From: a virus
Lineage: Duplodnaviria > Heunggongvirae > Uroviricota > Caudoviricetes
DNA: 27,380 nucleotides
Strand: one strand, 5' to 3'
IMG/VR virus record: IMGVR_UViG_3300010280_000022
Of this stretch, positions 1-27,380 are shown piece by piece; positions within the stretch are counted from its first letter, which is position 1, and each line of letters starts with the position of its first letter. The position numbers were made by a program, and so were the translations under genes. Below the pieces are notes generated by a model. It did no database searches. It had not been told where the DNA came from and saw nothing but the letters and a program-made list of their open reading frames with translations.

Positions 1-2420
1 CATATATTATTTGCCGACCTATGTACATACGTATTTACTATCGGCTTAGATGAAGATGAACCCTTAGCTCTCGAACCATCGATAAGACAGTCAGACACTG
101 ACATAAATCCTGAAACAAGGTTGTTACTCACATCCCAATCTATGGCCATTTTGTCAAAATAAACACTGCCAAGCATATATGTTTTTCCACCAGAATAGCC
201 TACAAACCTACGTAATACACCACCATAATGCTTGATGTAACTCCTAGTCATTCCTGATGTGATATTCATATATACAATATCCATATTGCACTCAATTCCG
301 TAAAGGCAAGATGCATATTCTGATATGTGTCCAACATAACATACAACTTTACATCCAGTTGATTCAGATGGAGTCAATTTAATTACAGGAATATCTCTTG
401 TAGATGCATCATGATATGAAATTGCCAACTCAAATCTTGCGTCTTTACCATTAAAAGTGCTACCAGTAAAATCTATCAACGACGGCATTTTAAAGTCACG
501 CAAAGGTGATGGCTGTGTTTTAAAGTTATTTTTAAATGATAAAATATTGAGTGTTACCTCAGAAGGCCAGTATATATTCGTCTGTACAATTATATTCTTC
601 GGAAGATGTAAAGTGCGCGGCTGGACAGGGTTCCCGGACGCGATAACATTGTCTGAACGACACAAAATCATATCCACCAAACCGGATGAACCCTCTGGAA
701 TACGAACGGATCCCCCACGGACTATGAAATCACCTTTATGTTCACCGTAATCCGTACGTACTCCAAACGGCCCTATGTGAGAATTGATGATCTGTGTTGC
801 CTCGTCGAACGCCCCAGTACCAACCAAGACGCCGCCAGGTATCCGACAATTATCAACAAGAATCTTTGAGCACCCATAGTGCATGTGAAAGCTATCAATA
901 TTACTGTCTCTCACAACTACATCCCTGCAATAGTTGCCGTCAATAGACCTCCACCCCTTACCCACTTCGCAGCCGATAAAAGTATGTTTAAGGGTGTACT
1001 CCATAGCTACGGTATAACGAGAATTATTATCCGTCTGCGTAATACCCGCACTCGTTAATCTCCAGTTAACTCCGTAGGTGGTAGAGCTACCAAAAATATT
1101 AGAATCTGTAGCTGTCATCCCCATGTCATTAAAGTAAACAACCTCAACATCAACTAAAGAACGTTGGATATCAAAAGCATAGCGTGAAAATTGACCAGTG
1201 AAACGCGGCAATACAATTTTATTACGCTTAGTTGGTAGCTTAAATAACGTACAAGTTACGGGGTCGTTGTAAGTATTTTTAAGACTGTAAGCCAATTCCC
1301 CTGGCTTAGTCATAAAGTTCACTTCACCTTTATATCTTGGGCTGAATACACCACCAATCAACCTATAGAGATCAACCTCTGTTGGACTTATTATTTTGAC
1401 GAGCGAATTACCCCACCCTGCTAAATCCTCAACACAAGAAAAAACTGAGGTTAACTCGTTCAATGGGTATGTTGATATATTAACTTCCTTTATATAATTA
1501 TCATCATCCCTTTCATCTTTATACACAACCTTTCCGTTTGTTAAGTGGAAAGTACAATTACTCAAATCAAAATCACCATATAGATATGTTTCTTTATCTA
1601 TGGTGAAAGTTAGTGGCGCGCTTGAGTATATTTTTATTGGTGTATTTTTATACTTATAAAATATAGCATTAAGCTGATCACTATTCCGCTCACCGTCTAG
1701 TGCGCTTATATCATATATATATAATCTGTTTTCTAATCCACCAATTAACTTATACCCATCAGGTTTAGCTAATTCAATTAGAACGTCTGAGGCAGATCCA
1801 GATGGTGGTAATACGACAAATGGATTACCATCATTATCAAAAGCAACCATCTTGTTTGCTCTTTCAATAGCATCAGGTAAGGAAGGTATTGATTCAGGAA
1901 CACGAAGAGTTTTGCTTAGATTGCTACCAGCAAGCGTATCCACGTAATTTTTTGTTGCCGCATCCTGCGGAAATCTGGGATCTCTCAGGTTACGAATATA
2001 ATTGTTCAAAGCATCATAATAATTAGCAATAAATGATGGTTTACGCAGAGCCAACCTGAACCAACTTCTAACCTGCTGTATCAGCATCGTCAGTTTATCG
2101 AATGCGTCTTCATGCACCTCAGCGAAGAACTTACCCTGGTTGCGCAGATCGGTATCCTGCGTAACCGGTAGCTCTCTTGATATAGAAATCTGATAACCGT
2201 TAACCAACGCCTTCGACAGAATTACATTGCCGCCGTTATACCCTCCCGCACCAGTGACTATGTAATCAGTATCAAGAATCAGCTCTGTGATGTTCTCGTT
2301 CAGGTCAACAACCTGCACTACTAAATCAGATTTCTGGAAAATCCTGAAGGTATAAGGGAATGTCGTTGTAACACCGTTACCGGTGTATTCGTTGTGGTCA
2401 ACTTCGGTTGAGACCGTCAT
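1..2420 (-). CDS. Tailspike / tail fibre protein, 3'-truncated by window edge (at least 806 aa); T7 gp17-like N-terminal anchor domain plus AT-rich divergent C-terminal region
   Basis: Minus frame open from ATG at 2420 (GGAG 8 nt upstream) to position 1; absent from ORF track because no stop lies in the window. N-terminus MTVSTEVDHNEYTGNGVTTTFPYTFRIF..LVVQVVDL..DTDYIV fits the conserved podovirus tail-fibre N-terminal pattern. Confidence 0.8.
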   Translation of the reverse strand, partial: MTVSTEVDHNEYTGNGVTTTFPYTFRIFQKSDLVVQVVDLNENITELILDTDYIVTGAGGYNGGNVILSKALVNGYQISISRELPVTQDTDLRNQGKFFAEVHEDAFDKLTMLIQQVRSWFRLALRKPSFIANYYDALNNYIRNLRDPRFPQDAATKNYVDTLAGSNLSKTLRVPESIPSLPDAIERANKMVAFDNDGNPFVVLPPSGSASDVLIELAKPDGYKLIGGLENRLYIYDISALDGERNSDQLNAIFYKYKNTPIKIYSSAPLTFTIDKETYLYGDFDLSNCTFHLTNGKVVYKDERDDDNYIKEVNISTYPLNELTSVFSCVEDLAGWGNSLVKIISPTEVDLYRLIGGVFSPRYKGEVNFMTKPGELAYSLKNTYNDPVTCTLFKLPTKRNKIVLPRFTGQFSRYAFDIQRSLVDVEVVYFNDMGMTATDSNIFGSSTTYGVNWRLTSAGITQTDNNSRYTVAMEYTLKHTFIGCEVGKGWRSIDGNYCRDVVVRDSNIDSFHMHYGCSKILVDNCRIPGGVLVGTGAFDEATQIINSHIGPFGVRTDYGEHKGDFIVRGGSVRIPEGSSGLVDMILCRSDNVIASGNPVQPRTLHLPKNIIVQTNIYWPSEVTLNILSFKNNFKTQPSPLRDFKMPSLIDFTGSTFNGKDARFELAISYHDASTRDIPVIKLTPSESTGCKVVCYVGHISEYASCLYGIECNMDIVYMNITSGMTRSYIKHYGGVLRRFVGYSGGKTYMLGSVYFDKMAIDWDVSNNLVSGFMSVSDCLIDGSRAKGSSSSKPIVNTYVHRSANNI

Positions 2421-2524
2421 GTTAAATCTCCAGATAGTCGCAGCACCCGTTGCGCCGCATATCCGGTTATTCTATTACCTGAAAAACCATATATGGATAG
2501 ACAACCCATAAATACGAACAGATA

Positions 2525-2539
2525 TTACCTTTCAGGTGA
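2525..2539 (+). promoter_or_regulatory. Dyad motif site A: TTACC-TTTCA-GGTGA
   Basis: One of five intergenic copies of ATTACC-N5-GGTRA; lies between tailspike start and the LexA-box gene. Confidence 0.45.
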
Positions 2540-2578
2540 TTCGCAAAACGTGCTGGATAGCAAATAAATTATTTGATA

Positions 2579-2594
2579 CTGTATATTTATACAG
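2579..2594 (+). promoter_or_regulatory. LexA (SOS) box CTGTATATTTATACAG
   Basis: Exact CTGT-N8-ACAG with AT-rich core, flanks taCTGT..ACAGtt; preceded by TTGATA (2573-2578); 22 nt upstream of ATG at 2616. Confidence 0.75.
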
Positions 2595-2615
2595 TTATTG
2601 CATGGAGAAGATAAG

Positions 2616-2873
2616 ATGCAGCAGTATCACTATCCACTGGAAGACGGATTTACCGAAAGGATTCACACGCCGGGAGGCGTCAGATCACTGGTGGAGGGAT
2701 CGCACTTGATGAAATTACTCCGGGATCTCGATAAGGATGGATTTAATGTCGATGGCCCACTTGCCGAACTGACTGCACTGATTAACTACGTCACCAGCTC
2801 ACAGATGTCTATGCGGGATCTGCAAACACATCTCGACTATTGTGCCGAACAATTACGAAAACAAACCAGATAA
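2616..2873 (+). CDS. Small protein (85 aa) paralogous to the C-terminal domain of the adjacent antirepressor; candidate SOS-inducible antirepressor or modulator
   Basis: ORF-track frame 2598..2873 begins at TTG; in-frame ATG at 2616 has GGAG 8 nt upstream. Motifs P.GV..L.E.S.LM.LL..L..DG..V.G..AELT and LRD.QTH..Y are shared with residues ~150-231 of the 3189..3884 protein. Confidence 0.7.
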   Translation: MQQYHYPLEDGFTERIHTPGGVRSLVEGSHLMKLLRDLDKDGFNVDGPLAELTALINYVTSSQMSMRDLQTHLDYCAEQLRKQTR

Positions 2874-2919: not shown

Positions 2920-3010
2920 ATTTACATAGCACTCCTCTTGTGCCATAGTAATCGGGCACTGGCAAAATCCAGTGCCGGGATTGGCGTCCCGGATTACTAA
3001 AAGGCGCATT

Positions 3011-3031
3011 CACCGCGCAAGCGGTTTTTTT
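3011..3031 (+). terminator. Rho-independent terminator between the small LexA-controlled gene and the antirepressor gene
   Basis: Stem ACCGC/GCGGT with GCAA loop followed by six T. Confidence 0.6.
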
Positions 3032-3188
3032 ATGCGTATAGCACGGCCACATTCGTATTATGGTGGGCTGTGTGGGGGCACCGAAAGGTGCGCCGGGTCC
3101 TTTTAGCCGGTTACGCCAACCCTGCACAGTTCACCACCAACCGATTGGCGTCGGTAGTGGTGATTAACCAGACTAAAAGGTAACCACT

Positions 3189-3884
3189 ATGACAGCTACA
3201 AAAAGCACGTCCATTTTTTCTTTCGAATCCCAAGCCGATATACGGGTAATCGTCATTAATGGTGAGCCATGGTTTATCGCTTCAGATGTTTGTCGGGCTA
3301 TAGGCATAGCAAACCATCGAGATGCTGTTCGAAAACTTGATGATGATGAGAAGGGCGTCGCTTCAACCGACACCCCTGGCGGTGAGCAAGAATCGATCAT
3401 CATCTCCGAGTCAGGCCTCTACACACTGATCCTCCGCTGCCGCGATGCGGTGACACCAGGCACTATCCCATACCGCTTTCGTAAATGGGTTACAGGTGAG
3501 GTTCTTCCTCAGATCCGCCGCACCGGAAGTTACATTAAAAACTCGCTCACGCAGGAAGAACGCATAAAGATGGTTGCCGACCAGGTAGCCAACGCCACGG
3601 CGTCAGCAGTGATGCAGGCGATGAAGATAGAGAACAAAACCTACAGTGCCCCACTGAAGCCCGGCTACCGCAGCCTGATTCATTCGCCGTCTGGTGTTCT
3701 CGGCCTGACGGAGAACTCACTGCTGATGAATTTGCTGAACCAGTTACAGGAAGACGGGCACGATGTATCGGGCGCGGCGGCGGAACTGACCACCATGTTC
3801 TGCTACATCGTCGGTGTGAGCAAATGCCTGCGTGATATCCAGACTCACGCGGAGTACATCAACGACAAAGCAGGATTCTTCTGA
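3189..3884 (+). CDS. Bro-N family phage antirepressor (231 aa)
   Basis: N-terminal IRVIVINGEPWFIASDVCRAIGI...LDDDEKGV is the Bro-N/antirepressor signature; AAAAGG upstream of ATG; long structured leader. Confidence 0.8.
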   Translation: MTATKSTSIFSFESQADIRVIVINGEPWFIASDVCRAIGIANHRDAVRKLDDDEKGVASTDTPGGEQESIIISESGLYTLILRCRDAVTPGTIPYRFRKWVTGEVLPQIRRTGSYIKNSLTQEERIKMVADQVANATASAVMQAMKIENKTYSAPLKPGYRSLIHSPSGVLGLTENSLLMNLLNQLQEDGHDVSGAAAELTTMFCYIVGVSKCLRDIQTHAEYINDKAGFF

Positions 3885-4102: not shown

Positions 4103-4642
4103 GTGTTAAGTGAAGAAATGCAATTTGCCATGGCTGTGGCTCAAATCGTAAGTGCAGTCGCGGTTTCGCTTGGCTTGTTCATAGCTATCGCTACTATTAT
4201 TTATAATGTAAATACAGCGAGAAAAGTACACACTTCAGTATTCCTTGGTGAAAGCAGGTTTGATGTAGATTATAAGAAAGGCCTATCTACTATGCGCCGC
4301 ATTCACGAATCGAACAAATCATTCCGCTCTTATATGTATCCAAGCAATGGGCAGGCTGATCTTACGGATGAAGAAAAGATAGAGAAGAGAGAAATAATTT
4401 ACTGTCTAGGTTTCTACGAACGCATGGCTGTGAGCGTGAAGCGGAAAACTTATGATGAGACCATGATTAAGGAAGTATTTTACAGCTCCGTTGTAAATAA
4501 CTATCAGATTGCGCTACCTCTTATACAAGCTATTAGAGAAAAAGAAAACATAAACACATATTTTAAAGAATATGAATGGTTGGCCACACGATGGAAGGAT
4601 TGTCCATTGAAAGATAAATCCCCGTGGTACAAGTTTTGGTAA
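4103..4642 (+). CDS. AT-rich inner-membrane protein (179 aa; one N-terminal TM helix); candidate superinfection-exclusion/defence moron
   Basis: GTG start with GGAG 6 nt upstream (alternative ATG at 4118); hydrophobic segment FAMAVAQIVSAVAVSLGLFIAIATIIY; AT-rich codon usage unlike the flanking structural genes; strong terminator follows. Confidence 0.7.
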   Translation: MLSEEMQFAMAVAQIVSAVAVSLGLFIAIATIIYNVNTARKVHTSVFLGESRFDVDYKKGLSTMRRIHESNKSFRSYMYPSNGQADLTDEEKIEKREIIYCLGFYERMAVSVKRKTYDETMIKEVFYSSVVNNYQIALPLIQAIREKENINTYFKEYEWLATRWKDCPLKDKSPWYKFW

Positions 4643-4663
4643 GCCCGCGACGCGGGCTTTTTT
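4643..4663 (+). terminator. Rho-independent terminator after the membrane-protein gene
   Basis: GCCCGCG..CGCGGGC hairpin immediately after TAA, followed by six T. Confidence 0.7.
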
Positions 4664-4735
4664 GTGGACGAAACAAAAGTCAGTGCTACACTCATTGACG
4701 CCACATTGAGGTGGCTTATAGATGGAAATTTCACA

Positions 4736-4897
4736 ATGAAAAAAGCATTTGCTGCACTGTTCGTTTTGTTGTCTCTGGTAGCTTCAACTCAGGCCTTTGC
4801 CGGTCGTTGTCAGCACGACAGCGATACTGCCGCTGACGGCTCCCGCTGCGGTGGGCGTTCTGCGGATTCCCGCCCGGGCGGCGGTGGCATTCGTTAA
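4736..4897 (+). CDS. Small secreted peptide (53 aa; signal peptide plus ~31-aa Gly/Arg/Asp-rich mature part with 2 Cys)
   Basis: MKKAFAALFVLLSLVASTQAFA is a typical Sec signal with AXA site; upstream TTGACG (4695-4700), 16-bp spacer, TATAGA. ORF-track N-terminal extension from 4664 rejected. Confidence 0.5.
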   Translation: MKKAFAALFVLLSLVASTQAFAGRCQHDSDTAADGSRCGGRSADSRPGGGGIR

Positions 4898-4933: not shown

Positions 4934-5494
4934 CTACATTGATATATGATTCATAAAGTAGCTTAAAGATTTACTTCCCAGAAAAGAAATTTCTTTTCCT
5001 GGATATGTCGCAATAATTGAGCATGACTTATCCCCGTTAGAGGTAACAAATCCTGAATAACCTACTTGTTCTTTACCATTTTGTTGCTTGGCTAAAAAGT
5101 AGAGGTAGCTTATCTTTTTGCCCTCTGGGTAAAACTCTGCCAAACCAGTATCGGTGATTGAATATTTTATTCTCCCGCCTTGAGTAACGTTTTCCATCTC
5201 AAGTTTAGCTATGTCTTTTCTGTTGTATTCAGCATTGATTTTCCTTTCGAAATCAATGTTGTTTTCAAATGAGTAGGAAGCAACAGTCTGAATAGATGGG
5301 AACACGTTTATCTGGATGCCTCCACAGTCGGCACAGGTATAAAGGTATGAATCAGATGGAATCCCCATAAAAGAAAACTGAGTTACCTTAAATTTATCGC
5401 TATCTCCAAAGTATTGAAGTTCGCATTTAACATTTTGCCCTGCAAAAGAAAATGCAGACATCAATATTGAAACAAAAAATATAATTGCCTTCAT
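4934..5494 (-). CDS. AT-rich secreted/periplasmic protein (186 aa), last gene of the late operon; function unknown
   Basis: Signal peptide MKAIIFFVSILMSAFSFA; four Cys; ATG 3 nt after the stop of the upstream 850-aa gene; composition much more AT-rich than the core genes. Confidence 0.7.
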   Translation of the reverse strand: MKAIIFFVSILMSAFSFAGQNVKCELQYFGDSDKFKVTQFSFMGIPSDSYLYTCADCGGIQINVFPSIQTVASYSFENNIDFERKINAEYNRKDIAKLEMENVTQGGRIKYSITDTGLAEFYPEGKKISYLYFLAKQQNGKEQVGYSGFVTSNGDKSCSIIATYPGKEISFLGSKSLSYFMNHISM

Positions 5495-5496
5495 TA

Positions 5497-8049
5497 TTAT
5501 TTACCTAGCATGAACTGCGATGGTGGGATCAGAAAGCCGTTACCCTGCTCACGCTCAACACGGCGCTGATAACGCTCAAGAGAGCCTGGGTCAAGGGCAT
5601 CTTGTATCCGGTTCAATATTAAACCATTCATCGCCGTACGAAGCCAGAACACGTTGAGGAATGGCGTATTGTCAAGTGCCGTGCGATACCAGTCACCCAA
5701 ATCTGCATCCCCTCTCGTGGTCTGCTGGAGCAGCGTGATAATGCTGTCAGCGTTCGATGCTGCTGGCCCCATTAGCGACGTAACCGGCCCGGCCCCCATG
5801 CGGTTGACCTCGCCAAACATGAAGTCACCCAAGATGCCAAGACCGCCCCCCTGAGATGCGGCTGCGAGAAACGTCTTGGCATCTGCCGGGCGTGGTGTTT
5901 GCCCTTTCAGCATGAGTTTTGACTGCATGGAGATATAACCAAACATAGTCGCCCAGACAAAGAGGTTTGCAGCACCAAGGAAAGCCCCCTTCCCGTTACG
6001 TAGCAGCGCATTCGTCAGCGATCCGGTTTTCGACTCACCAAGCCCAGCAGGAATATAACCACGCCCGAATACTTCGCGTCCTAGTACGTTCTGCATGAAG
6101 CTTGCAGTGAACGATTTGTACTGACCAGCGAATCGTATTGCTTCCCCAGCCACCGTTCCTGGCACCGTGCCCATCTTCATAAACGCCTGCGTGCGATCGC
6201 CAGGCTCTGACATGGCGATATTCAGGCGGTCAAGGATGTAGCCGCGCAACTGCCCTTCCAATTGATCGCGTGCGTCAGCGATAGCGCGCTGCGTTGGTTT
6301 GATCCCCTTACTCTCTACATAACCGGCAATCACTTCGTCAGGCACGCCGCGGATGCCGCTGGTCGTCATGAACTTACGACCTTCGCTATCGGCCATGTCC
6401 ATGTTGCGAAAAATTTCCCACTCACGTTCGCCAATACCGTGCAGATCCAGCACGCGTCGCAGGTCTTCCGGTAGCCGCGCATGAGACTGGTCAGCATTCT
6501 TTGCAAGCCAGTTGGTTATCATCATGGCGTTGCTGTTGCGACCGCTCTCGGTCCAGAAGTTCATGAGGTTGTACTTAAAGAAAAGCTGCTGCGCGCGACC
6601 AAGCTTTCCATTCAGCGTGTCATCACCAGATATGCGCCGGATGATTTCCTGCGTCATGGAGTCGGAATAAACTCCGATAGAGGAAAGGATCTCTTTCTGC
6701 TCCGCGCTGTTGTAACGCGTGAAGCGGCCTCTCATAGCACCAAGCAACGCCTGCATAAAATTCTGCCCTTGGTAGCGCATCTCGGTAGCGGCGATAGGCA
6801 CGTCGTTAAACGATGAGATTACCGCGCCACCAAGTTGGCTCATACGCAACCAGCCGCGTACAGCCGCCGACGCATTGGCCCAGCCTACGCTGCCAGGAAT
6901 ATTTAGCGAGCCGTCAACCTGCGGCATTACGGTACGGTTAATGCGACGCACCTTCGTCATGTAGTCAGCCAACGCTGCCGGTCTTCCGGATTTGCTGATA
7001 TCTTCAGCAATGGCGTCCGTCAGGTACTTAAACATGTTCTGTGGGTTAGTGCCCAGTACGCGCATCATGCCCGTTGTGCGGGCAGCGCTGTTTAAGCCAC
7101 CAAACAGCGCTTCTCGCAGGCTGCCGGTGCCGAATTGCTGGTTGTACTCGTGCCAAGAGATACCATCTTTGAAGTGCAAAATTCGCTCTTGGCTGGCGCG
7201 TTTAGCTGCGTTCGCCGATCCCTTAAAGCCATTCATCCAATCGGGCTTTTCAGATGTAAGATGCACGCCGGAAGCCAGCCCGTTATAAATGTTACGCATG
7301 AACTGCTCGCGGTCAGCCACGCCGTCAAAAGTGCGCTCATCAAGGCGCGGGAGAATAGCATTTCGCCATGCATCATAACCTGCGGCGCGGATCTTCATGA
7401 TGTCGTGTGACTGGCGCACTATATAGCCCGGCTCTTTGCGTATCCATGCCCCGGCGCGGTTCTCATCAATGCGCGCAGTTTCCTGCCATTTCATGATGAT
7501 TTGTGCAGCGCTTACGGATTGCTTTGTCATACCGTCAGTTGACTGCCCGCGCCCTATGCGCCACATTGCATCGGCAATTTCCCGGTCATTGCTGCCGCTG
7601 GCGATGAATTGCACCAGCCCGGCACGGTCAAAATCGTAGTTGATACCGGAATGATACTTGCCGCGCAGTTGCGCCACCTCCGAAGATACCGACCGGCGGG
7701 CGCCGGTACGCGCATCGTTGCGGCCAACCAGCATTGCTTCAAGCCCGATATCCGGGCGGTCTTTCCAGATAGTACGAAGCTCTCTAAGTCGTTGTGCGGC
7801 AATACGGGCGTTGATTGCCTTATTGCGAGCCTCAATCTGTTTTGCCAGCATATCGGCATTGCTCAGTTCTTCCGCTGCGCGCATCGCGGCCTCTTCCAGA
7901 GACAGCGCCTCATTGGTCGCCAGAATTCGCCTAGTGGTGTCGTTCATGTCACGCACCAGCGACTCCATCTCATCGGAAGAAAGCTCGCGACCAGCGGCAG
8001 CATTTACACTGCGCTCGCACTGCGTCAAAAATTCGTTTGCTGCCATCAC
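5497..8049 (-). CDS. Internal virion/ejection protein (850 aa; T7 gp16-like position)
   Basis: Long ORF overlapping start/stop with neighbours, in the block between tail-tube genes and tailspike. Confidence 0.7.
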   Translation of the reverse strand: MMAANEFLTQCERSVNAAAGRELSSDEMESLVRDMNDTTRRILATNEALSLEEAAMRAAEELSNADMLAKQIEARNKAINARIAAQRLRELRTIWKDRPDIGLEAMLVGRNDARTGARRSVSSEVAQLRGKYHSGINYDFDRAGLVQFIASGSNDREIADAMWRIGRGQSTDGMTKQSVSAAQIIMKWQETARIDENRAGAWIRKEPGYIVRQSHDIMKIRAAGYDAWRNAILPRLDERTFDGVADREQFMRNIYNGLASGVHLTSEKPDWMNGFKGSANAAKRASQERILHFKDGISWHEYNQQFGTGSLREALFGGLNSAARTTGMMRVLGTNPQNMFKYLTDAIAEDISKSGRPAALADYMTKVRRINRTVMPQVDGSLNIPGSVGWANASAAVRGWLRMSQLGGAVISSFNDVPIAATEMRYQGQNFMQALLGAMRGRFTRYNSAEQKEILSSIGVYSDSMTQEIIRRISGDDTLNGKLGRAQQLFFKYNLMNFWTESGRNSNAMMITNWLAKNADQSHARLPEDLRRVLDLHGIGEREWEIFRNMDMADSEGRKFMTTSGIRGVPDEVIAGYVESKGIKPTQRAIADARDQLEGQLRGYILDRLNIAMSEPGDRTQAFMKMGTVPGTVAGEAIRFAGQYKSFTASFMQNVLGREVFGRGYIPAGLGESKTGSLTNALLRNGKGAFLGAANLFVWATMFGYISMQSKLMLKGQTPRPADAKTFLAAASQGGGLGILGDFMFGEVNRMGAGPVTSLMGPAASNADSIITLLQQTTRGDADLGDWYRTALDNTPFLNVFWLRTAMNGLILNRIQDALDPGSLERYQRRVEREQGNGFLIPPSQFMLGK

Positions 8050-9743
8050 ATCCCCCGGTTAATCATACAGGCGGCAAATGCCCGGAAAGCGTTGCTCATG
8101 CTATTGTCGCTGGCGTCGGTACGAATATCATTGAGTTTCTGGCGCAACGTGGTCGCAAGATCAGGGTTATCGACAGCGATATCGTCAAGCAGGGCGTTAC
8201 TCAGGTTGAGCTCGTTATCAAGGTCTGCAGCGGCAGCGGTAATTTCATGATCTGCCTTTTGCGTTTCTTGATAAACCCGATCGGCTGTTTCGCTTGCTGG
8301 GCGAGCCGTTTCATCAACCTGCCGTGCCGGGTTCTGTATGCGATGGATGGCGCGTTCACGCAGTGCCGGTTTGTGCAGTTCATAGAAGGGCTCAACATCT
8401 GGGCTACGTCCTTCCATCATGTGTGCCAGCGCAGCGCGATACGCCTGCTGGTTCACGTTCCAGTCAGCATCCCTGATGGCGCTTGCGGCAGTGCGAACTG
8501 CGCCAGCGACCGGCGACATCTGCATGCCGTCCAGGATCTGCTGCGCACGCTCGGAAATGGTGACTTTCAGGTCGTCGGGGATCTCGCCGCGGGAAATCTG
8601 AGACTGGCGCCAGCGCGCCTGCTCTGCTGTCGCGTGCTGCTCCAGCGATGTGTTGATCTCCTGATTGCGTGCAGCGATGGCGTCTTTCTCGGCCTGAATC
8701 TCTTTCAGTGCCCTAGAGCGCGCATCCTTAAACTTCATCCGCTGCCCCTGATACTTTTTGGTGCGCTGCTGCAGCGTCGCATCAAGCGAGTCAGCATGAC
8801 GTTGATTAGCCGCAAGCTCGGCACGCAGGTCGGCAACGTTACCGATCTGCCCGCTCTGTAACTCCTGCTGGCGCGCCATATAGTCAGGAACCACGTCGTC
8901 ATAAGCCCGGCTGTATGCGTAGCTCTCCGCTTCACTGGAAATGGCCGCCGCCAGATCTGCATTAGCGCCAACCTCAGGGATATTCACGCCCGCCGGAATG
9001 TTGTCAGGCGTTATCACCGGGGTTGGCTGCGCATCGCCAGAAAACGCCGGGGACTCTCCCGTTGCAGCATCGGGAACGCGACGCGGTCGCACGATATCGG
9101 CGATAAGGCCGCCGCCGGCATGCATTAGACCGCCAGCCATCGTGTTAAAGAAAGTACTTTCCAACGCGTTGCTATAGGTGAAGTCGTCACCTTCCGCCGC
9201 CGCTGCCAGCCCGGTAAGCGGCACGGTCACCACAGCCTGCGCTGCCCCCATGCGTGCACCAGCAACAAATCGCTCGCCAAATCGGCCAAGCACAGAAGCT
9301 GCCTTTGCTTCTCCAGCGAACGGAACCAGCGCCAGCGCCACGTTACCAGGATCTGCCATTGAACCAGCTAGGCTGGCTGCGAAATTAAGCGGCGTGGCTA
9401 CCCATCCGCTCGGTGCCGACATCGCGATCTGCTGGCGTGCCAGAGAATCTTTGCGTTCGGCAATAACATGATCGAGAAAAGCCTGCGTAACGCCAGAATC
9501 TGGCACGTTTATGCTCTTTACGCCGTACTGCTTCAGGAGCTCATCCGCTTCCTGCTTACTGATAACTGTAGAGTTTGGGTCATTCGCCAGCGAGTCGGCC
9601 TGCGCAAAGCGGTAGCCGGACATGACCGGCCCCTCTTCAAATCCCTGCTTAAGGGAAGAAAGCAGCGATTCGCCAAGCCCTGCTGGCGCGTTGCCAATTG
9701 GCTGGTTAATGCCCTGTCCCGGATCATCTGTGTAAATTGGCAT
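8046..9743 (-). CDS. Internal virion/ejection protein (565 aa)
   Basis: Long Ala-rich ORF, ATGA overlap with downstream gene, in the internal-core block. Confidence 0.65.
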   Translation of the reverse strand: MPIYTDDPGQGINQPIGNAPAGLGESLLSSLKQGFEEGPVMSGYRFAQADSLANDPNSTVISKQEADELLKQYGVKSINVPDSGVTQAFLDHVIAERKDSLARQQIAMSAPSGWVATPLNFAASLAGSMADPGNVALALVPFAGEAKAASVLGRFGERFVAGARMGAAQAVVTVPLTGLAAAAEGDDFTYSNALESTFFNTMAGGLMHAGGGLIADIVRPRRVPDAATGESPAFSGDAQPTPVITPDNIPAGVNIPEVGANADLAAAISSEAESYAYSRAYDDVVPDYMARQQELQSGQIGNVADLRAELAANQRHADSLDATLQQRTKKYQGQRMKFKDARSRALKEIQAEKDAIAARNQEINTSLEQHATAEQARWRQSQISRGEIPDDLKVTISERAQQILDGMQMSPVAGAVRTAASAIRDADWNVNQQAYRAALAHMMEGRSPDVEPFYELHKPALRERAIHRIQNPARQVDETARPASETADRVYQETQKADHEITAAAADLDNELNLSNALLDDIAVDNPDLATTLRQKLNDIRTDASDNSMSNAFRAFAACMINRGM

Positions 9744-9744
9744 G

Positions 9745-17638: not shown

Positions 17639-17689
17639 CTTCTTTCTCCATTAGTGGGTCTGTTACGACCCACAGGTTAATAACAGGCG

Positions 17690-18682: not shown

Positions 18683-18690
18683 TTCCTCTC

Positions 18691-19392
18691 TTATTTGCCA
18701 TAGAGCACTTCGGCCGCACTACGCTGGCCTTCATTACCACCGGTGACCATGCCATCTTCAGACATCGCCTTTCCGATTTTCACGAACGTTTTGACCAGAT
18801 CAGGGTGATTACCCAGCCCGGTGGTGTTCAGATATTCTTTGAGTTCAGGTGTCCCGAACTGGTCAAGCGCACGCTGTGCGGCGCTGAGGTTAGAAATCAA
18901 CTTGTCGCCACCGATTTCTTTGTCAGCTTTTACATCCGCAGCCCACTGCTCGGTTGTTTTCTGCCAGGCTTCTGCCTGGCGCTGCTGAACACCTGCCAGA
19001 ATCTTCGGATAAGCATCAACCAGCTTTTGCGCTTGCTCGTTGGTCAGGTTAAGTTCTCGCGCCACCGGCTCGAATTCCTTCAACGCTTCTGTATCCAGCT
19101 CTACGCCTTCGGCAGCCTGAAACTCGTACTTCTCCGGCGCACCCTCCGGTTTATCGCCGTCATTTTTTTCACCCTGCTTATCGCTTTCAGGCTTTTTGTC
19201 ATCAGCAGGTTTATCGCCATCAGCAACAGGTTGTGGCTTATCACCTTCCTGTTGTGATGGATCACCAACTGGAGCAGGGTTATCACCTGTAGGCGCTGAC
19301 GGTTCTGACGCAGCCGGAGCTGCTCCACCATCGACTGGTTGCTCATTGCAAAGACGGCGATACAGCAAACGCTCAAATAAATTCATGATCAC
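18691..19392 (-). CDS. Scaffolding protein (233 aa)
   Basis: Acidic, Pro/Asp/Lys-rich low-complexity N-terminal half and helical C-terminal half, between portal and capsid genes. Confidence 0.65.
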   Translation of the reverse strand: MIMNLFERLLYRRLCNEQPVDGGAAPAASEPSAPTGDNPAPVGDPSQQEGDKPQPVADGDKPADDKKPESDKQGEKNDGDKPEGAPEKYEFQAAEGVELDTEALKEFEPVARELNLTNEQAQKLVDAYPKILAGVQQRQAEAWQKTTEQWAADVKADKEIGGDKLISNLSAAQRALDQFGTPELKEYLNTTGLGNHPDLVKTFVKIGKAMSEDGMVTGGNEGQRSAAEVLYGK

Positions 19393-19685
19393 TCCTGTTC
19401 ACTGGCCTCTTTGGCCATCTTCAAATACTGTTCAGGGCAATGCGCCATAACGCGCTGAAACAGTTCCAGCGCCAGATTGCGTTGCCCCTCATTAAATGCC
19501 ATTGCCATAGCGTCCATCGGTGAGATAGCGGAAAACACACGGCCTTTCTCCAGCACCGACCAGACAACGCGACGCCCCTGTTCACTGCTCATGACAAAGC
19601 GAATGTCATCAATTTCACGCTGCGCCATGTCACGTTGCTTACGGGCGTTTTCTTCTTTCAGTTGATCGTCTTCGTAATCTGTCAT
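19389..19685 (-). CDS. Hypothetical protein (98 aa) between portal and scaffold
   Basis: ATGA-type overlaps with both neighbours suggest translational coupling. Confidence 0.55.
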   Translation of the reverse strand: MTDYEDDQLKEENARKQRDMAQREIDDIRFVMSSEQGRRVVWSVLEKGRVFSAISPMDAMAMAFNEGQRNLALELFQRVMAHCPEQYLKMAKEASEQE

Positions 19686-21361
19686 TGTGATTGCCCACCC
19701 TGACCACTAACTGCATTCGCCATAGCTGACAAAACACTCGGATCCGAAGTTTTAGCTTCACTTAGCGTCTTGGCACCCTGTGCCGCCGCCATCCCCATCG
19801 CCATCATTTGTTGCTGCTGTTGTTGCTGTGCCCGTTGCTGGCGAGCCTGCTCAACCTGTTCCTGCGGAACAATGACGGTTGGAGACACTCCGGACATATC
19901 AGCGAATGCATCGATCGCCTGATCAACGTTGAGTTTGTCGAGAGCTTCTGGTTTCGCTTGCGCAAGTTGACCAATGAAGTTAACCGTGGACGCCAGACTG
20001 GACAGGCCGATAGACTTCTGCGCCTGAGCCATGACGGAAATGTATTCGACCTTCAGGGGCATGCCTTCCATCGCGTCAGGCGGTGGCGGCAGCATGTTTT
20101 TACGCACCATCATCGAGAAAGCGCGGTCAATGAGAGGATTAAGACATTCGTCGTTCAGACGCTCCAGAACCGGCCCCAACATCAGAAGTTTTTCTTCTTT
20201 CATTTCGATCACCGCTTCAACAGGCATCGAGCGGGTATTGATGTTCTGCAACATCATGAACAGATCGACAAAGTAGGCGCTGTTAATGATTTGACGAGTG
20301 TCCTGAATGTCTGCCACCAGATCTGCTGTACTGGGGTTAACCAGATAAGCAGGCCTGAAGCCATCCTGACCAGTAATCTGATCGATATACGTGATGTCGC
20401 CAGGAAGAAGGGAGGCGCGCTGATTCTTGAGGGAAGTCGGAGCAACCATCGGCGGATTGGTGGCTTTATCAATCAACTGCGACTTGCGCTTCTGGAGAAG
20501 CTGCAATGCCTTAACAGGTCCAAGCGCCAGCATACCCGGGCATGATGATCCATAAACATCTTCGCCGTTAACTTCCCAGCGCGGAGCCATAATTGGAAAC
20601 TCATCAAATCCGGACTCACGCAACAACTTGTCGTTATCGCCACCAACCTCGTAATAAACCGATTTGAATGGCTTGTTCTTGCTATCCAGCTTCGAAGTAT
20701 CGCGGTCAATGTTCGGGTAAACCGAATGCATCACTTCAATCCACTTCTCGTAGGTGCCGCTTTCCCACATGCTTTTTACGGATTCGCTGACGTTATTTAG
20801 CCCGAACTCCTGAACAAGCTGACGAACAGTCATAGAGAACTTGCGAAAACAGGTGTCCACACTGCCACGAGGTGAGTTAGCCAGGTAGTAACTGCCTATC
20901 GGGAATGGCATTGTGCGAATGATGTCCTCGTCATCCTCCAGCACTGCCATTGCACCAGTGCTGTATGTGCCGAGGCTTCCGTATAACTGCGGCAGCGACT
21001 GATAGAGATTCGACTTATTGAACATATCGTTCATGCGGTTCTGCACCGCCTCAAGCCACAACTTAACAGGGCCATAATCCATCATTTCAGGATCTGGCGT
21101 AGCCAGGCGAAACCACGGACGCGCGGGGCTTGTGATGCCTGACATCATGCCACTAGCGAGAGTGCGCGCCGCCATAGTCCCGGTCGAATCAATAATGCGT
21201 GTATTGCGTCGATCGTTACGGTTGACCTCAGAAGTCAGAAAGCGGGAACCACGCGGGTTGATGTAATCACTCAACTCGCGCCAGTGCGGCTCGAACGACT
21301 GACGCTCGCTTTCAAGTTGTGCGAACTGTTTGTTCAATCGCTCTTTAGTTGTTTCCGCCAT
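19682..21361 (-). CDS. Portal (head-to-tail connector) protein, T7 gp8-like (559 aa)
   Basis: Q-rich stretch followed by MMAMGMAAAQGA near the C-terminus and an ERL...P N-terminal pattern recall T7 gp8; GGAG 8 nt upstream. Confidence 0.8.
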   Translation of the reverse strand: MAETTKERLNKQFAQLESERQSFEPHWRELSDYINPRGSRFLTSEVNRNDRRNTRIIDSTGTMAARTLASGMMSGITSPARPWFRLATPDPEMMDYGPVKLWLEAVQNRMNDMFNKSNLYQSLPQLYGSLGTYSTGAMAVLEDDEDIIRTMPFPIGSYYLANSPRGSVDTCFRKFSMTVRQLVQEFGLNNVSESVKSMWESGTYEKWIEVMHSVYPNIDRDTSKLDSKNKPFKSVYYEVGGDNDKLLRESGFDEFPIMAPRWEVNGEDVYGSSCPGMLALGPVKALQLLQKRKSQLIDKATNPPMVAPTSLKNQRASLLPGDITYIDQITGQDGFRPAYLVNPSTADLVADIQDTRQIINSAYFVDLFMMLQNINTRSMPVEAVIEMKEEKLLMLGPVLERLNDECLNPLIDRAFSMMVRKNMLPPPPDAMEGMPLKVEYISVMAQAQKSIGLSSLASTVNFIGQLAQAKPEALDKLNVDQAIDAFADMSGVSPTVIVPQEQVEQARQQRAQQQQQQQMMAMGMAAAQGAKTLSEAKTSDPSVLSAMANAVSGQGGQSQ

Positions 21362-21375
21362 TTCAATGACTCCGG

Positions 21376-21582
21376 TTACTGACCAAGTAGCGTTTTACCG
21401 CTGGTATTAGCGGTTGATGTGTCGCCCTGAGAACCGGTAAGCAGCGTAGAACTACGACCAGCAGCAGCGCGACGGCGACGAGTTTCTTCGTCGCGGGCAT
21501 CAACAACGGCGGCATCCTGCTCCTGTGGTGCTGCCTGAACTTCTGGTGTTGCAGGCACTGATGGTGAGCTACCCATGCACAT
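21376..21582 (-). CDS. Small Ala/Gln/Arg-rich protein (68 aa) upstream of portal
   Basis: Same RBS context GGAGTCATTGA(T/A)ATG as portal; the overlapping 21363..21602 frame looks non-coding. Confidence 0.5.
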   Translation of the reverse strand: MCMGSSPSVPATPEVQAAPQEQDAAVVDARDEETRRRRAAAGRSSTLLTGSQGDTSTANTSGKTLLGQ

Positions 21583-22308: not shown

Positions 22309-23127
22309 ATGAAAAACTTCAAGGTAATTAGCATGTTTGAATCGTTTAAAGAGCTGTTTTTATCTACTGCCAATACTGCCGTGAATAGAGCCAAAAACCC
22401 TGTGCTTGGTGCTTTTGTTATGTCCTGGTGCGCCTTCAACTGGAAATCAATTCTTTATCTATTTTTTAGCAAATCAAACATAATAGATAAAATTTCATAT
22501 ATCTCAGATAACAGCACATGGAAAACTGTTATGTTTTATCCATGCTTATCTGTAATTGCTATCTGCTGCCTATTACCATGGGTAAACAATATCATTAACG
22601 TATGGCAAGCAAAGCCTCTTGATAATAATGACTCAATCGAAAATCACCTGAAGGCAAGAAAAATCCAGCGTGAAACAAGACTGCAGAGGTTATTGGCTAA
22701 AAAAGATGTTACATACGACAAAGTTAAGACTGGCGCGGAAAAAGACATCCAAGAGATGAAAGAAGAGATTATTCGATCAAAGAATAGTATGGGGGAATTG
22801 ACTGCCGAGTTGAAAGCTAAAGATGACGAATTGAGATCCGCCAGTGCTCAGTTAGCAGCTCTAAATCATTCATTAAAAGAGATATCGGAAACTCTTGGAA
22901 GAATGAATGAGGCATATAAGACCCTCCAAAATGATTTCGACGAATACAAACTCAAATACCCTGAAAAATCTCAAATAAAAAGCCTTGCACTTGGCAACGG
23001 CCAAACAATTAGCAACTTTTTGGAGCAACACAACTTATCCGGATTAAAATCTGGTAAGCCAAACGTTTTTAATAACTTTGGTGTTCTATCTGGATTATCA
23101 GGTTTCGAGGATAAAAATAAAGACTAA
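22309..23127 (+). CDS. AT-rich moron: membrane-anchored protein with C-terminal coiled coil (272 aa); candidate abortive-infection/superinfection-exclusion factor
   Basis: Two hydrophobic segments (PVLGAFVMSWCAFNW..., VMFYPCLSVIAICCLLPWV) then a long charged heptad-like region; opposite strand and markedly more AT-rich than the flanking terL and portal genes. Confidence 0.7.
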   Translation: MKNFKVISMFESFKELFLSTANTAVNRAKNPVLGAFVMSWCAFNWKSILYLFFSKSNIIDKISYISDNSTWKTVMFYPCLSVIAICCLLPWVNNIINVWQAKPLDNNDSIENHLKARKIQRETRLQRLLAKKDVTYDKVKTGAEKDIQEMKEEIIRSKNSMGELTAELKAKDDELRSASAQLAALNHSLKEISETLGRMNEAYKTLQNDFDEYKLKYPEKSQIKSLALGNGQTISNFLEQHNLSGLKSGKPNVFNNFGVLSGLSGFEDKNKD

Positions 23128-25266: not shown

Positions 25267-25500
25267 TCAAAGTCCATCAAATCCATCGTAAAAACTCTCG
25301 TCAAGATACCCTTCCCATTTACCGCGAATGAAAATTACATCCTCGCCGCAAGGGTGCTGACTGTCGATAACTATATCCCTCCTGGCGCAACCATACTTAT
25401 GCATGAGAAATTTAACCTCTTTCGGAAAATTTGCTGAGTTATCTCTCATATCTTCAAGGTCGTAGCGTATTTTTGGCATAACACCTTCGTGACATGTCAC
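25267..25500 (-). CDS. Hypothetical protein (77 aa)
   Basis: ORF in a compact minus-strand array with overlapping stop/start codons. Confidence 0.5.
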   Translation of the reverse strand: MTCHEGVMPKIRYDLEDMRDNSANFPKEVKFLMHKYGCARRDIVIDSQHPCGEDVIFIRGKWEGYLDESFYDGFDGL

Positions 25501-25838
25501 ACTATTAATTTCGTTTCATGCCAGCCTTTGGTCACCCAGCATTGCGAGTCACCATTACACGGGCATGAATTCACAGGAACTCTCTCGCCGCACTTACCGC
25601 AACGTTTTCTGCTGATCGATTTTATACGCCCGTGCACGCGAGCATCATCCTGGCGGATAAGTAACGCAATATACTCACCAAATTCGTAAGGCACACGCCC
25701 GGGGCGACGCGTGGCACAGTTACGCTCCAGCATTTCAATTTCCTGAGCATCAAGCACAATCTCCAGCTTACGTACACCGGATGCAGCTTGTCTGGCTCTC
25801 TGAGCGGCTTTGCGCTCTGCTGCTGATTTAGCCATCAA
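25497..25838 (-). CDS. Hypothetical basic protein with C-terminal Cys cluster (113 aa)
   Basis: CGKCGERVPVNSCPCNGDSQC suggests a zinc-binding motif; N-terminus Lys/Arg/Ala-rich. Confidence 0.5.
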   Translation of the reverse strand: MMAKSAAERKAAQRARQAASGVRKLEIVLDAQEIEMLERNCATRRPGRVPYEFGEYIALLIRQDDARVHGRIKSISRKRCGKCGERVPVNSCPCNGDSQCWVTKGWHETKLIV

Positions 25839-26109
25839 TATTTACCTTTATAGCGAACACCTTTACCGGTTTATCGCCGAAGTGCGGATGTGTGATTGTT
25901 TTTATTTCATATCCGTTATACGGGACGTCAATTCTGCGACTGAAGTCTTCGCGCTTCGGATATCCCTTTGTGATAATCAGGCGGTCATACTCGCGGAACA
26001 TAATTCGCTTATTCCAGTAGTCATTACACAGGCGATACTCTTCCGTTTTCTCCCCGCGAATCATGGCATCGAAGTATTCACCTTTGACGGCAAGTTGCAG
26101 GTTAGCCAC
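25828..26109 (-). CDS. ASCH/PUA-like (DUF3850-like) protein (93 aa)
   Basis: LAVKGEYFDAMIRGEKTEEYRLND matches the ASCH/DUF3850 N-terminal pattern; start reassigned to GTG at 26109 with GGAGG 6 nt upstream. Confidence 0.5.
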   Translation of the reverse strand: MANLQLAVKGEYFDAMIRGEKTEEYRLCNDYWNKRIMFREYDRLIITKGYPKREDFSRRIDVPYNGYEIKTITHPHFGDKPVKVFAIKVNIDG

Positions 26110-26704
26110 GGTTAACCTCCTGCGGCGGTTTTGCTGCAAAATGCGCAATACCTTTATCCCAGATGGATTTTATGGTCGTCCACGTGACTGGTACTTTAAT
26201 TTCAATTCGTCCGCTCCCGTCACAGGTATCGCAATCATCATCGCTAAAGCATTCCGGGCAGCTTATAAACGTAGTTTCTGAAAATTCACCGGATAGCACA
26301 CCCTTAGCGCCGTTCTCAGCGGTTAGTTTCTTCGGCACTATAACCCAACCATCCGGAGTTGCCGGATAGTTGCCATTCACAAGGTCAGCTCGAACATATA
26401 GCGTGTCATCATGGTGTTGATTGTGGCTGCACCACGTTAATTCGCTTAACTCACCATCTTCTGGCCATACTCCAGCTGTTTGCAGCCAGATATGGGCTGG
26501 CGCATCTTGGCAAGGTGTATTAACTGGCAACTTGTAAGTTTGGCTTACAGGTTCTGCACTATCAGCTTCGCGCCGCTTCTGTAGCTCTGCTGCTATCGCT
26601 CTCACGACTTCAACTGGTGCCCTTGCAGCAAACTCTATGTTGGTGATCAGCTCATTAAGATATTGCTCGCTGGGATACTGTTTCTTATTGGTAATAGTGG
26701 TCAT
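26102..26704 (-). CDS. Hypothetical protein (200 aa), possibly DUF551-like C-terminal region
   Basis: W...WPEDG pattern and Cys-rich CPECFSDDDCDTCDGSG segment; ATGA overlap with the upstream gene. Confidence 0.5.
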   Translation of the reverse strand: MTTITNKKQYPSEQYLNELITNIEFAARAPVEVVRAIAAELQKRREADSAEPVSQTYKLPVNTPCQDAPAHIWLQTAGVWPEDGELSELTWCSHNQHHDDTLYVRADLVNGNYPATPDGWVIVPKKLTAENGAKGVLSGEFSETTFISCPECFSDDDCDTCDGSGRIEIKVPVTWTTIKSIWDKGIAHFAAKPPQEVNRG

Positions 26705-26910
26705 TTGTTAACCCTCAAAACTTTATGCCCGGGCGCAAAAGCACGCGTTTTGTCTTTGCTTATTCGCCAGCCATCCTTGCGCGCCTCTTTTGCACAGCCA
26801 GCCCATGACGTACCTATATACTCACCGAAGTCTGGCGACTTATATTTGCCATCTGTACACTGGAGGCAGTCACAATAGAGATGCATGGTGTAACTTGCGG
26901 CAATAGCCAT
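26701..26910 (-). CDS. Small Cys-rich protein (69 aa)
   Basis: ATG at 26910 with AAGGAG 7 nt upstream; CDCLQC...C motif. The 26701..27072 ORF-track call overlaps the next gene in another frame and is trimmed. Confidence 0.55.
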   Translation of the reverse strand: MAIAASYTMHLYCDCLQCTDGKYKSPDFGEYIGTSWAGCAKEARKDGWRISKDKTRAFAPGHKVLRVNK

Positions 26911-26911
26911 A

Positions 26912-27313
26912 TCACTCTCCTTTGATGCGAATGCCTGCGGCGCGCTCGGCTTCACTTTGTTCCCAAAACCACTTGTGAAGCTCCATGAGATTTTCGTCAA
27001 TCGGTGCATATTTGCGATTAAAGTAGGCCTGAGCATCTTTCTCAGATTCGTCCGGCAATTCGCCTGGACCAAACAGTGTGTTATAAATCCATGCCAGTCC
27101 GCTTTTAGCGTCGCCAGTCGATCGCCATTCGATAATGGCAGCCTGCATGACCAGAATGTTTTTCCCGATTAATAGGTCCAGTTCTTTGAACCGGTTACGG
27201 ATGTATGCATTCTCGCTTTGTAATTTTGCGTTGCGCTTCTCTGCGGCTTCCAGCGCTGCAACCAATTCGTCTACAGTTCCGGCAGCTTGCAGTGCGTAAT
27301 CGGTAATAGCCAT
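26912..27313 (-). CDS. Hypothetical protein (133 aa in window); frame stays open to the window edge, so the true start may lie beyond 27380
   Basis: No in-frame stop between 27313 and 27380; Trp-rich helical protein. Confidence 0.5.
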   Translation of the reverse strand: MAITDYALQAAGTVDELVAALEAAEKRNAKLQSENAYIRNRFKELDLLIGKNILVMQAAIIEWRSTGDAKSGLAWIYNTLFGPGELPDESEKDAQAYFNRKYAPIDENLMELHKWFWEQSEAERAAGIRIKGE

Positions 27314-27380
27314 CTCATGATCAATTTCAGTACCGTTCTCATTCGTTGAGGTGATAGCAAAATAATCAGAGTCGATTTCG

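Follow-up and report, generated by a model that had tools for sequence, protein, structure and literature searches.

The stretch of DNA analysed here (the window) is the whole 27,380-nucleotide sequence of the virus record IMGVR_UViG_3300010280_000022. Comparison of its genes and sequence with those of known phages makes it almost certain that this window of about 27 kb is a part, read in reverse, of a temperate E. coli podovirus of the epsilon15/phiV10 type (genus Uetakevirus), comprising the virion arm plus predicted lysogeny controls. It spans the last early genes, the terminase, head, tail and ejection protein genes and most of the tailspike gene; its left end cuts the tailspike and its right end the early region. 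Nearly all of its long open reading frames (ORFs) are on the minus strand. The original prediction, made from the sequence alone, had seen in it a noteworthy hybrid, with T7-like virion proteins in a P22-like temperate layout, informative about module exchange between lytic and temperate podoviruses. The late genes, from the right to the left of the window, are the following.

24596-25270, minus strand: terminase small subunit, 224 aa (PF03592, phrog_2 and phrog_51 for the two subunits together)
23124-24599, minus strand: terminase large subunit, 491 aa; both subunits are syntenic with phiV10 gp1/gp2
within 19682..21582, minus strand: 68-aa gp3-like gene ahead of the portal
19682-21361, minus strand: portal, 559 aa (PF12236 Head-tail_con, 624 bits)
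16481..19685, minus strand: head module of the epsilon15/BPP-1 type (PF21628, PF21190, PF20911, PF25181; PHROGs)
15876..16484, minus strand: tail adaptor, 202 aa, tubular tail protein A (AlphaFold model, pLDDT 88; T7 gp11 fold)
13405..15876, minus strand: tail nozzle, 823 aa, tubular tail protein B, in T7 gp12 position (PDB 8CK1_A)
12366..13405, minus strand: two small internal virion proteins, 191 aa and 154 aa (PHROG 'internal virion protein')
5497..12366, minus strand: three large internal (ejection) proteins (phrog_684, phrog_3003, phrog_1044), syntenic with epsilon15 gp15-17
1776..2420, minus strand: tailspike N-terminal virion-attachment module, residues 1-215, epsilon15/phiV10 type
3..1775, minus strand: tailspike receptor-binding part, residues ~216-806, GC about 39%

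Late genes and nearest relatives

In megablast searches, positions 1938-25000 of the window were 97-98% identical at the nucleotide level to phiV10, to the O157 typing phages 9 and 10, and to TL-2011b, phiv142-3 and vB_EcoP_ZX5; identity to the Salmonella phage epsilon15 was 77%. The annotated records of epsilon15 (gp1-gp20) and phiV10 (p01-p25, i.e. gp1-gp25) are colinear with the window gene for gene. With these long-known genomes, which the original prediction had itself named for comparison, the 23-kb late block shares its gene order throughout and 77-97% identity, and this is where the window belongs. The capsid proteins point to the same genus: gp7 matched PF20911 with an E-value of 2e-149, gp10 matched PF21628 (E 1e-51) and Bbp16 matched PF21190 (E 7e-47). 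Besides the gp10 staple, the Bbp16 cement and the gp7 major capsid protein, the head module holds a 114-aa protein, a 233-aa scaffold/protease-like protein and a Bbp19-like protein. As had been predicted, the terminase genes are upstream of the portal: both (23124-25270) precede it (19682-21361) on the minus strand, from which they are parted by a 1.5-kb insert made of a tRNA-Arg gene and an opposite-strand gene. A sequence search of the PDB gave no match for the large terminase subunit.

With phiV10 and its relatives the window shares, beyond 97-98% nucleotide identity over the conserved parts, an identical gene order from the terminase to the tailspike N-terminus, the tRNA-Arg gene, a small antirepressor (Ant) and an isrK/C4 RNA pair ahead of a BRO-N gene. 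It differs from phiV10 in the receptor-binding part of the tailspike (identity stops near residue 230), in the length of the BRO-N protein (231 aa against 194 aa in phiV10), in having a gene for a 186-aa protein where phiV10 has a 46-aa gene, and in having a DUF4760 gene and a 272-aa gene where phiV10 has p22, p03 and p04. With epsilon15, the type member of Uetakevirus and a model system for cryo-EM (cryo-electron microscopy), it shares the colinear gp1-gp20 genes, including capsid gp7/gp10, the portal and the gp11-gp17 block, the LexA box with the gp19 Ant, and the repressor operator motif; in the records examined epsilon15 is without isrK/C4, BRO-N antirepressor and tRNA.

Among 5,426 complete E. 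coli genomes, 1,574 had some match to the window and 47 held at least 80% of its first 25 kb; no phage record in the collection searched reached 80% coverage of the query. Of the genomes, NZ_CP138217 matched best: its prophage is flanked by yfgI and a site-specific integrase and also carries a lysis cassette, RecT/exonuclease genes and a repressor of the helix-turn-helix type. That the window is partial, and that many E. coli genomes carry fragments, with so few of the 1,574 matching ones holding at least 80% of it, could mean that it comes from a prophage remnant of this family that is defective and can no longer be induced. We consider this improbable, although it survives better than the other alternatives: every ORF of the 23-kb late region is intact, with lengths as in phiV10 or epsilon15, and the regulatory sites described below are intact as well. 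The architecture is an already known one, that of an ordinary member of a well-studied genus; the original observation was largely right, its reading as a notable hybrid was not.

Tail, ejection proteins and tailspike in relation to T7 and P22

The gene order in the virion block is portal, small protein, scaffold/protease-like protein, capsid, decoration proteins, adaptor, nozzle, the 154-aa and 191-aa proteins, three large internal proteins and tailspike; it parallels T7 gp8-gp17. The block had been said to follow T7 in both order and motifs, and only the order stood. When all 30 window proteins were compared pairwise by BLASTP and phmmer with T7 gp6.7-gp19 and with 19 P22 late and immI proteins, no match reached significance: the likeness to T7 is at the profile and fold level only.

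At that level it is found in several parts of the tail. The PF12236 model that the portal matches also recognizes T7 gp8 (379 bits), whereas the P22 portal belongs to PF16510; the closest solved portal is that of the marine phage Carin-1 (8CK0_A, E 6e-179). Foldseek searches with the adaptor model returned Carin-1 8CK1_E (E 7e-16) and T7 gp11 (7BOX_N, E 9e-6, TM 0.59, 13% identity), as well as LME-1, the KP32 tail tubular protein A (TTPA) and other podoviruses; P22 gp4 was not among the matches. The structural alignments to T7 gp11 were 10-14% identical. By sequence, the adaptor has a homologue in Carin-1 (E 3e-26). The nozzle matched the Carin-1 'Tail Nozzle' (PDB 8CK1_A) with an E-value of 4.5e-217 and LME-1 orf18 with one of 5e-16. 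Carin-1, the tail structure of which has been solved, thereby provides sequence homologues for four parts, the portal, adaptor, nozzle and spike N-terminus; it has been described as a T7-like virus, and each of these parts, the capsid-proximal domain of the fibre among them, is reported to resemble T7 structurally in LME-1 and Carin-1 (PMC12407071).

Among the internal proteins, the 191-aa one matched PF24072 (T7_gp14) with 33.7 bits, against a cut-off of 27, and the 154-aa one, in gp13 position, matched PF11090 (T7_Gp13) with 13.6 bits, below threshold. The three large ones are of 850 aa (epsilon15 gp17-like), 565 aa (gp16-like) and 873 aa (gp15-like). The 873-aa protein contains an SLT lytic transglycosylase domain (PF01464, E 1.5e-17), and phrog_342, 'internal virion protein with endolysin domain', was matched by the large internal proteins at E 4e-9; no match to the 850-aa protein came out of the PDB sequence search. 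Comparisons by hhalign of shallow family alignments with single T7 proteins were insensitive, missing even the adaptor despite its clear fold match.

The resemblance to T7 therefore has two sides. Alike are the order of functions, the Pfam families of the portal and of gp14, the adaptor fold and the presence of an SLT-bearing internal protein. T7 differs in showing no pairwise similarity and in its capsid, that of the window being of the epsilon15/BPP-1 type; the T7 terminase is at the far (right) end of the genome, while in the window it is upstream of the portal; and the SLT domain is N-terminal in the last T7 internal protein, gp16, and internal to the first large protein in the window. The T7 plan of a single-subunit RNA polymerase and a strictly lytic life is also not that of the relatives: epsilon15 and the E. 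coli prophage are without annotated RNA polymerase and carry integrase and repressor. Taken together, the profile and fold matches support a tail and ejection apparatus of the T7 type, not of the P22 type (portal PF12236 and not PF16510; adaptor and nozzle and not gp4/gp10/gp26).

By homology with solved structures, the virion would have a T7-family portal to which a dodecameric adaptor (T7 gp11 fold) and a hexameric nozzle are joined. The tailspikes, six trimers, would be fixed via the conserved N-terminal module, and five internal proteins, one of them a lytic transglycosylase, would be ejected to span the cell envelope. Staple and cement proteins would form part of a head of the epsilon15/BPP-1 type.

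The T7 affinity of the epsilon15 group is already known. Hardies et al. (2016) found its tubular tail proteins A and B and its internal virion proteins A-D (IVP-A to IVP-D) to be homologous to those of T7, with epsilon15 gp12 versus T7 gp12 as the sole strong match of hidden Markov models (HMMs) between homology groups and epsilon15 gp17 as the IVP-D homologue; the epsilon15 terminase and capsid group with siphoviruses (PMC4819975). The same study places the split between T7 and epsilon15 near the base of the podoviruses and P22 within the same deep 'transient tail' homology group. Because P22 is part of that group, the opposition of T7 to P22 that underlies the word hybrid is not a real one, and because there is no pairwise sequence similarity to T7, the resemblance is one of deep ancestry: it stems from an ancient common origin of podovirus tails and not from lytic and temperate phages having exchanged modules.

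The similarity to P22 is of a comparable kind. The functional order (terminase, portal, head, tail, ejection proteins, antirepressor island, tailspike) is that of P22, a Lederbergvirus, but much of this order is general among tailed phages, and the components differ. The P22 portal is of another family (PF16510), and there is no similarity to P22 gp4, gp10, gp26, gp7, gp20 and gp16; the P22 Ant is a PF10547/PF10548 protein, the antirepressor of the window combining Bro-N with a domain of the 5D50 type; Arc, Mnt and sieA are missing from the window; and P22 spikes have their own N-terminal head-binding domain, whereas the spike N-terminus of the window is of the phiV10 type and only residues 216-806 are P22-like.

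These residues are the exception. The tailspike gene starts at 2420 on the minus strand and runs off the left end, being cut about 38 codons before its expected stop. Its residues 1 to about 230 are of the phiV10 type (72% identity to phiV10 gp25, measured over residues 1-250), and the N-terminal module matched domain D1 of the Carin-1 tail-spike Dpo31 (E 4.7e-24) as well as PHROG tail families. Residues 216-806 align with residues 121-711 of a P22-type spike with 95% protein identity (560/591) and 97% DNA identity. The partner is a tailspike with a 'head-binding domain' in a P22-like prophage at argW/intS of E. coli JX21CE33 (8886-11135 of locus L006), the layout of which is ejection proteins, Arc/Mnt, P22-type Ant, tailspike. 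The junction of the chimera falls at a conserved P/N-DG-Y/F-K-x-IG linker. The receptor-binding part of the tailspike is the only piece recently exchanged with a P22-like phage, in a true exchange between two temperate lineages.

Swapping of receptor-binding parts is an expected behaviour of podovirus spikes. The anchor (residues 1-165, positions 1926-2420) matched 27,926 representatives of 50%-identity clusters at E<=0.001, among 1.84 billion representatives; among the 150 matches listed, module identity was never below 66% and fell below 78% in one case only, with protein lengths from 175 to 962 aa, which suggests many different receptor-binding parts on a single anchor. These matches were too alike in the module to deepen a profile. 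Exchange of receptor-binding cassettes on a conserved anchor looks common from these lengths and identities. The cassette is what predicts the O-antigen or capsule specificity for the host.

A recent mosaic, in which a lytic T7-like virion block would have recombined into a P22-like temperate backbone, could account for the T7 gp8-gp17 gene order, the two Pfam families common with T7, the P22-parallel layout with its island before the tailspike, and the receptor-binding part shared with a P22-like prophage. We nevertheless regard it as very unlikely: the virion proteins are without pairwise similarity to those of T7 and P22, even the T7 gp11 alignments being only 10-14% identical, the block is 77-97% identical to established Uetakevirus genomes, the families of the portal, Ant and tail machine differ from those of P22, and the T7/epsilon15 split is near the podovirus base, with P22 in the same deep group (PMC4819975). 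The idea that the window informs on lytic-temperate exchange does not hold, the whole block being colinear with known Uetakevirus genomes and the relation to T7 too old and already published. The window is of value as a correction: the T7, epsilon15 and even P22 lineages of podoviruses have had tail and ejection modules in common since ancient times, while lifestyle modules differ, which gives the impression of a hybrid. Its informative parts are the exchange of the tailspike cassette (95% protein identity) and two RNA genes, isrK and C4, that are not annotated in the phiV10 record.

Antirepressor island and predicted lysogeny control

Between the last internal protein and the tailspike, an island on the plus strand (2500-4900), which tells more than any other part of the window, contains two antirepressor genes and the sites and RNAs that may control them. 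These features, and the further copies of the operator motif, are the following.

2525-2539, unstranded: candidate Rep operator palindrome TTACCTTTCAGGTGA in the tailspike/ant promoter, with epsilon15 half-sites
2577-2597, unstranded: near-consensus LexA (SOS) box TACTGTATATTTATACAGTTA, 19 bases before the small ant ATG
2616..2873, plus strand: small Ant, 85 aa, of the epsilon15 gp19/SPC32H Ant type (PDB 5D50 chain E)
2905-2919, unstranded: second candidate Rep operator TTACCTTTGCGGTAA, overlapping promoter-like hexamers ahead of isrK/c4
2943..3031, plus strand: isrK-family RNA (Rfam RF01394), c4 target set 1 and intrinsic terminator
3056-3141, plus strand: C4 antisense RNA of the P1/P7 immI type (Rfam RF01695)
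3145..3180, plus strand: c4 target set 2 (UUGGCGU at 3145-3151, CUAAAAGG at 3173-3180)
3189..3884, plus strand: BRO-N::Ant fusion antirepressor, 231 aa (PF02498 Bro-N, E 2e-21; PHROG 'anti-repressor Ant')
3959-3973 (upstream of DUF4760), 12113-12127 and 22290-22304 (272-aa gene): further copies of the operator motif
21673-21687, unstranded: candidate Rep operator, a perfect palindrome (TTACCTTTCAGGTAA), within the gap of 430 bases that precedes the late operon
25210-25224: copy of the operator motif inside the start of the small terminase gene

The island had been called immI-like as in P22. Its position is indeed that of P22 immI, but homology with P22 was not found: the P22 Ant belongs to PF10547/PF10548, and the window has neither Arc nor Mnt. 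As to P22-type immI parts (Mnt, Arc, sar RNA), there are no Arc-family genes in the window, and isrK and C4 are the only RNAs that Rfam finds there. The RNA genes and their targets make the island immI-like, as far as sequence can tell, in the P1 sense and not in the P22 sense.

The first antirepressor is a close homologue of the Ant of SPC32H, an epsilon15-like phage: the 85-aa protein matched 5D50 chain E, 'Anti-repressor protein', over nearly its full length (E 1.9e-46), and its gene follows the LexA box. The pattern CTGT-N8-ACAG occurs at three sites in the window (0.32 expected), and only that at 2577-2597 is AT-rich and ahead of a gene; the sites at 17660-17675 and 22202-22217, the latter between the tRNA terminator and the 272-aa gene, are unlikely to be LexA boxes in view of their GC-rich spacers. 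The box is conserved in epsilon15 upstream of gp19 (TACTGTATGTTTATACAGTAA), where the operator is also present. In SPC32H the Ant tetramer breaks up the Rep tetramer (PMC9638917), and induction is driven by an Ant under LexA control (Kim and Ryu 2013, cited in PMC7380047). By analogy, DNA damage would make LexA leave 2577-2597, the 85-aa Ant would be made and the repressor would be pulled off its operators. The window differs from the SPC32H Rep/Ant switch (PDB 5D50) in that the Rep partner is outside and that a second, RNA-controlled protein with an Ant domain adjoins.

For this second protein the evidence is in the RNA sequences. The isrK RNA (2956-3031) scored 77.9 bits with RF01394 (gathering score 50), RF03163 (c4-a1b1) gave 45.1 bits, slightly below its gathering score of 46.7, and C4 matched RF01695 over its full length with 77.7 bits (gathering score 45), 48 bases before the ATG of the BRO-N ant gene. 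Two loops of C4, CCUUUUAG (3099-3106) and ACGCCAA (3113-3119), have exact complements of 8 and 7 bases in both target sets, the first of which consists of UUGGCGU at 2981-2987 and CUAAAAGG at 2997-3004; the target at 3173-3180 covers the Shine-Dalgarno sequence of the BRO-N ant gene (ATG at 3189). The duplex between C4 and target set 2 had a predicted energy of -41.0, against -30.3 ± 4.7 in shuffled sequences, 8 of 500 of which were as low. Residues 150-226 of the BRO-N protein are homologous to the small Ant (5D50_E, E 1e-13), so that one and the same putative repressor-binding domain occurs in two proteins of the locus, differently controlled.

The arrangement has the main parts of P1/P7 immI (c4, icd, ant): a full-length C4, two a/b target sets, one of them over the antirepressor ribosome-binding site, and an operator-like promoter site. 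It differs in the antirepressor, which combines BRO-N with an SPC32H-type Ant domain, and in icd: no icd-like reading frame is present between c4 and ant (3141-3189), and the target sits directly on the ant ribosome-binding site. On the P1 analogy, the second antirepressor would be held down by the co-transcribed C4 antisense RNA, the loops of which would pair with the ribosome-binding site of the BRO-N ant gene as in P1/P7 immI. The isrK/C4 pair is also found in phiV10 and in the NZ_CP138217 prophage, and is absent from epsilon15; among the relatives it is at 4016-4201 of locus L001 and at 12713-12898 of locus L002. In the phiV10 RefSeq record the site carries only a 'terminator' and a misc_feature, and both RNAs appear to be unannotated in this reference. 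An isrK, c4 and BRO-N arrangement has been reported in the P22-like APSE phages (PMC7313666), and overexpression of the BRO-N antirepressor lowers lysogeny in vB_EcoP_ZX5, a close relative (PMC9782041).

The operator motif ties the island to the rest of the window. TTACCT-N3-AGGTAA (with at most three mismatches) occurs nine times, against 0.47 expected, with half-sites identical to those of epsilon15 sites annotated 'repressor; lysogeny' (ATTACCTNNNAGGTAAT). The copies are mostly intergenic, at promoter-like positions of the late region, and the equivalent of the site at 21673-21687 in epsilon15 (2931-2947) is an annotated repressor site. This distribution suggests that the repressor may directly control late and accessory promoters: the prophage repressor, its gene being outside the window, would bind the motif at the late-operon, terminase, tailspike/ant and accessory promoters.

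We tentatively propose that the 2500-3900 part of the island is a two-input antirepressor switch, with one Ant gated by LexA and the BRO-N fusion gated by operator and c4 RNA; this is a possibility that we hold at well below even chances. If it is true, the BRO-N route could be an anti-immunity or superinfection input in the style of P1, and phiV10-type Uetakeviruses would have two independent routes to inactivate one repressor, epsilon15 having only the LexA route. No description of an RNA layer in Uetakevirus was found in the literature consulted.

A temperate lifestyle had been read from the LexA box, the antirepressor and the tRNA. All three are present and the lifestyle stands, but the tRNA is no indicator of it: it is an internal phage gene, conserved in phiV10, and holds no evidence on lifestyle. 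The element is temperate because the LexA, Ant, operator and c4 elements are there and because its relatives are integrated with an integrase or proven temperate; those proven temperate integrate at guaA (PMC9782041). A strictly lytic source, or a lytic derivative, would explain why the window is without integrase, attachment site and repressor gene, yet it is very unlikely in view of the c4/ant module, the repressor operators and the antirepressor gated by LexA, of nearest relatives that are integrated prophages or proven temperate, and of at least 80% of the window being held by 47 chromosomes but by no phage record.

Several points weigh against the assignment of the window to a temperate Uetakevirus with a T7-type tail and a swapped spike, and are to be set beside the evidence above. 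The integrase, the attachment site and the repressor gene are absent from the window, as is the attP core attgagtgggaatgatt (3' end of guaA); we infer integration and an intact immunity region from the relatives, and LexA binding, Rep binding and C4 action are predicted from the window sequence. The Pfam models of T7 gp11 (PF17212) and gp12 (PF25675) had no match in the adaptor and nozzle. The link of the tailspike N-terminus with T7 gp17 is not established (PF03906, E 0.14; in-register hhalign match with E 0.024 and a probability of 2%, in a comparison that is insensitive), and the AlphaFold model of residues 1-240 had a pLDDT of 45. Finally, the exact tailspike combination was absent from the phage collection and from the 5,426 complete E. 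coli genomes.

Accessory genes, tRNA-Arg and early region

Outside the conserved block and the switch, the window carries genes of low GC content, a tRNA gene and the end of the early region.

4103..4897, plus strand: DUF4760 protein (179 aa, GC 39%; PF15956, E 1.6e-30) and 77-aa protein (phrog_3117, phrog_14503)
4934..5494, minus strand: 186-aa protein with a signal-peptide-like N-terminus, GC 35.5% (phrog_11983)
22010-22086, plus strand: phage-borne tRNA-Arg, anticodon UCU, reading AGA
22309..23127, plus strand: 272-aa accessory gene, GC 36% (phrog_4780)
25267..27313, minus strand: end of the early region, six small genes (ASCH, DUF4752 and Ea22-like neighbours in relatives)

The accessory slots at 4103-5494 and 22309-23127 vary among relatives. 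Terminator-like hairpins flank the genes for DUF4760 and the 77-aa protein, the latter bearing the PHROG label membrane-associated protein. The 186-aa gene occupies a variable slot after the last internal protein, in late-operon orientation, where phiV10 and epsilon15 carry other small genes. The translation of the 272-aa gene has hydrophobic N-terminal segments followed by a coiled coil, and its matches in PADLOC were weak and of the coiled-coil type only; PADLOC returned nothing for the DUF4760, 186-aa and 77-aa proteins. By their low GC content (35-39%), the receptor-binding part of the tailspike, DUF4760, the 186-aa protein (putatively secreted) and the 272-aa protein (putatively in the membrane) would be exchangeable accessory modules.

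phiV10 and the E. coli prophage have the tRNA-Arg gene in the corresponding position. AGA codons are used at 5.1 per 1000 overall and cluster in horizontally acquired genes of low GC content: of the 40 present, 12 are in the tailspike, five in the 272-aa gene and three in DUF4760, and none in the capsid, portal and terminase genes. This distribution fits a role of the tRNA-Arg(UCU) in serving low-GC accessory cassettes.

In the early region, the 133-aa protein (26912-27313, minus strand) matched PHROG families without known function, and its residues 22-120 matched the PADLOC model 'DpdH' with an E-value of 1e-36.

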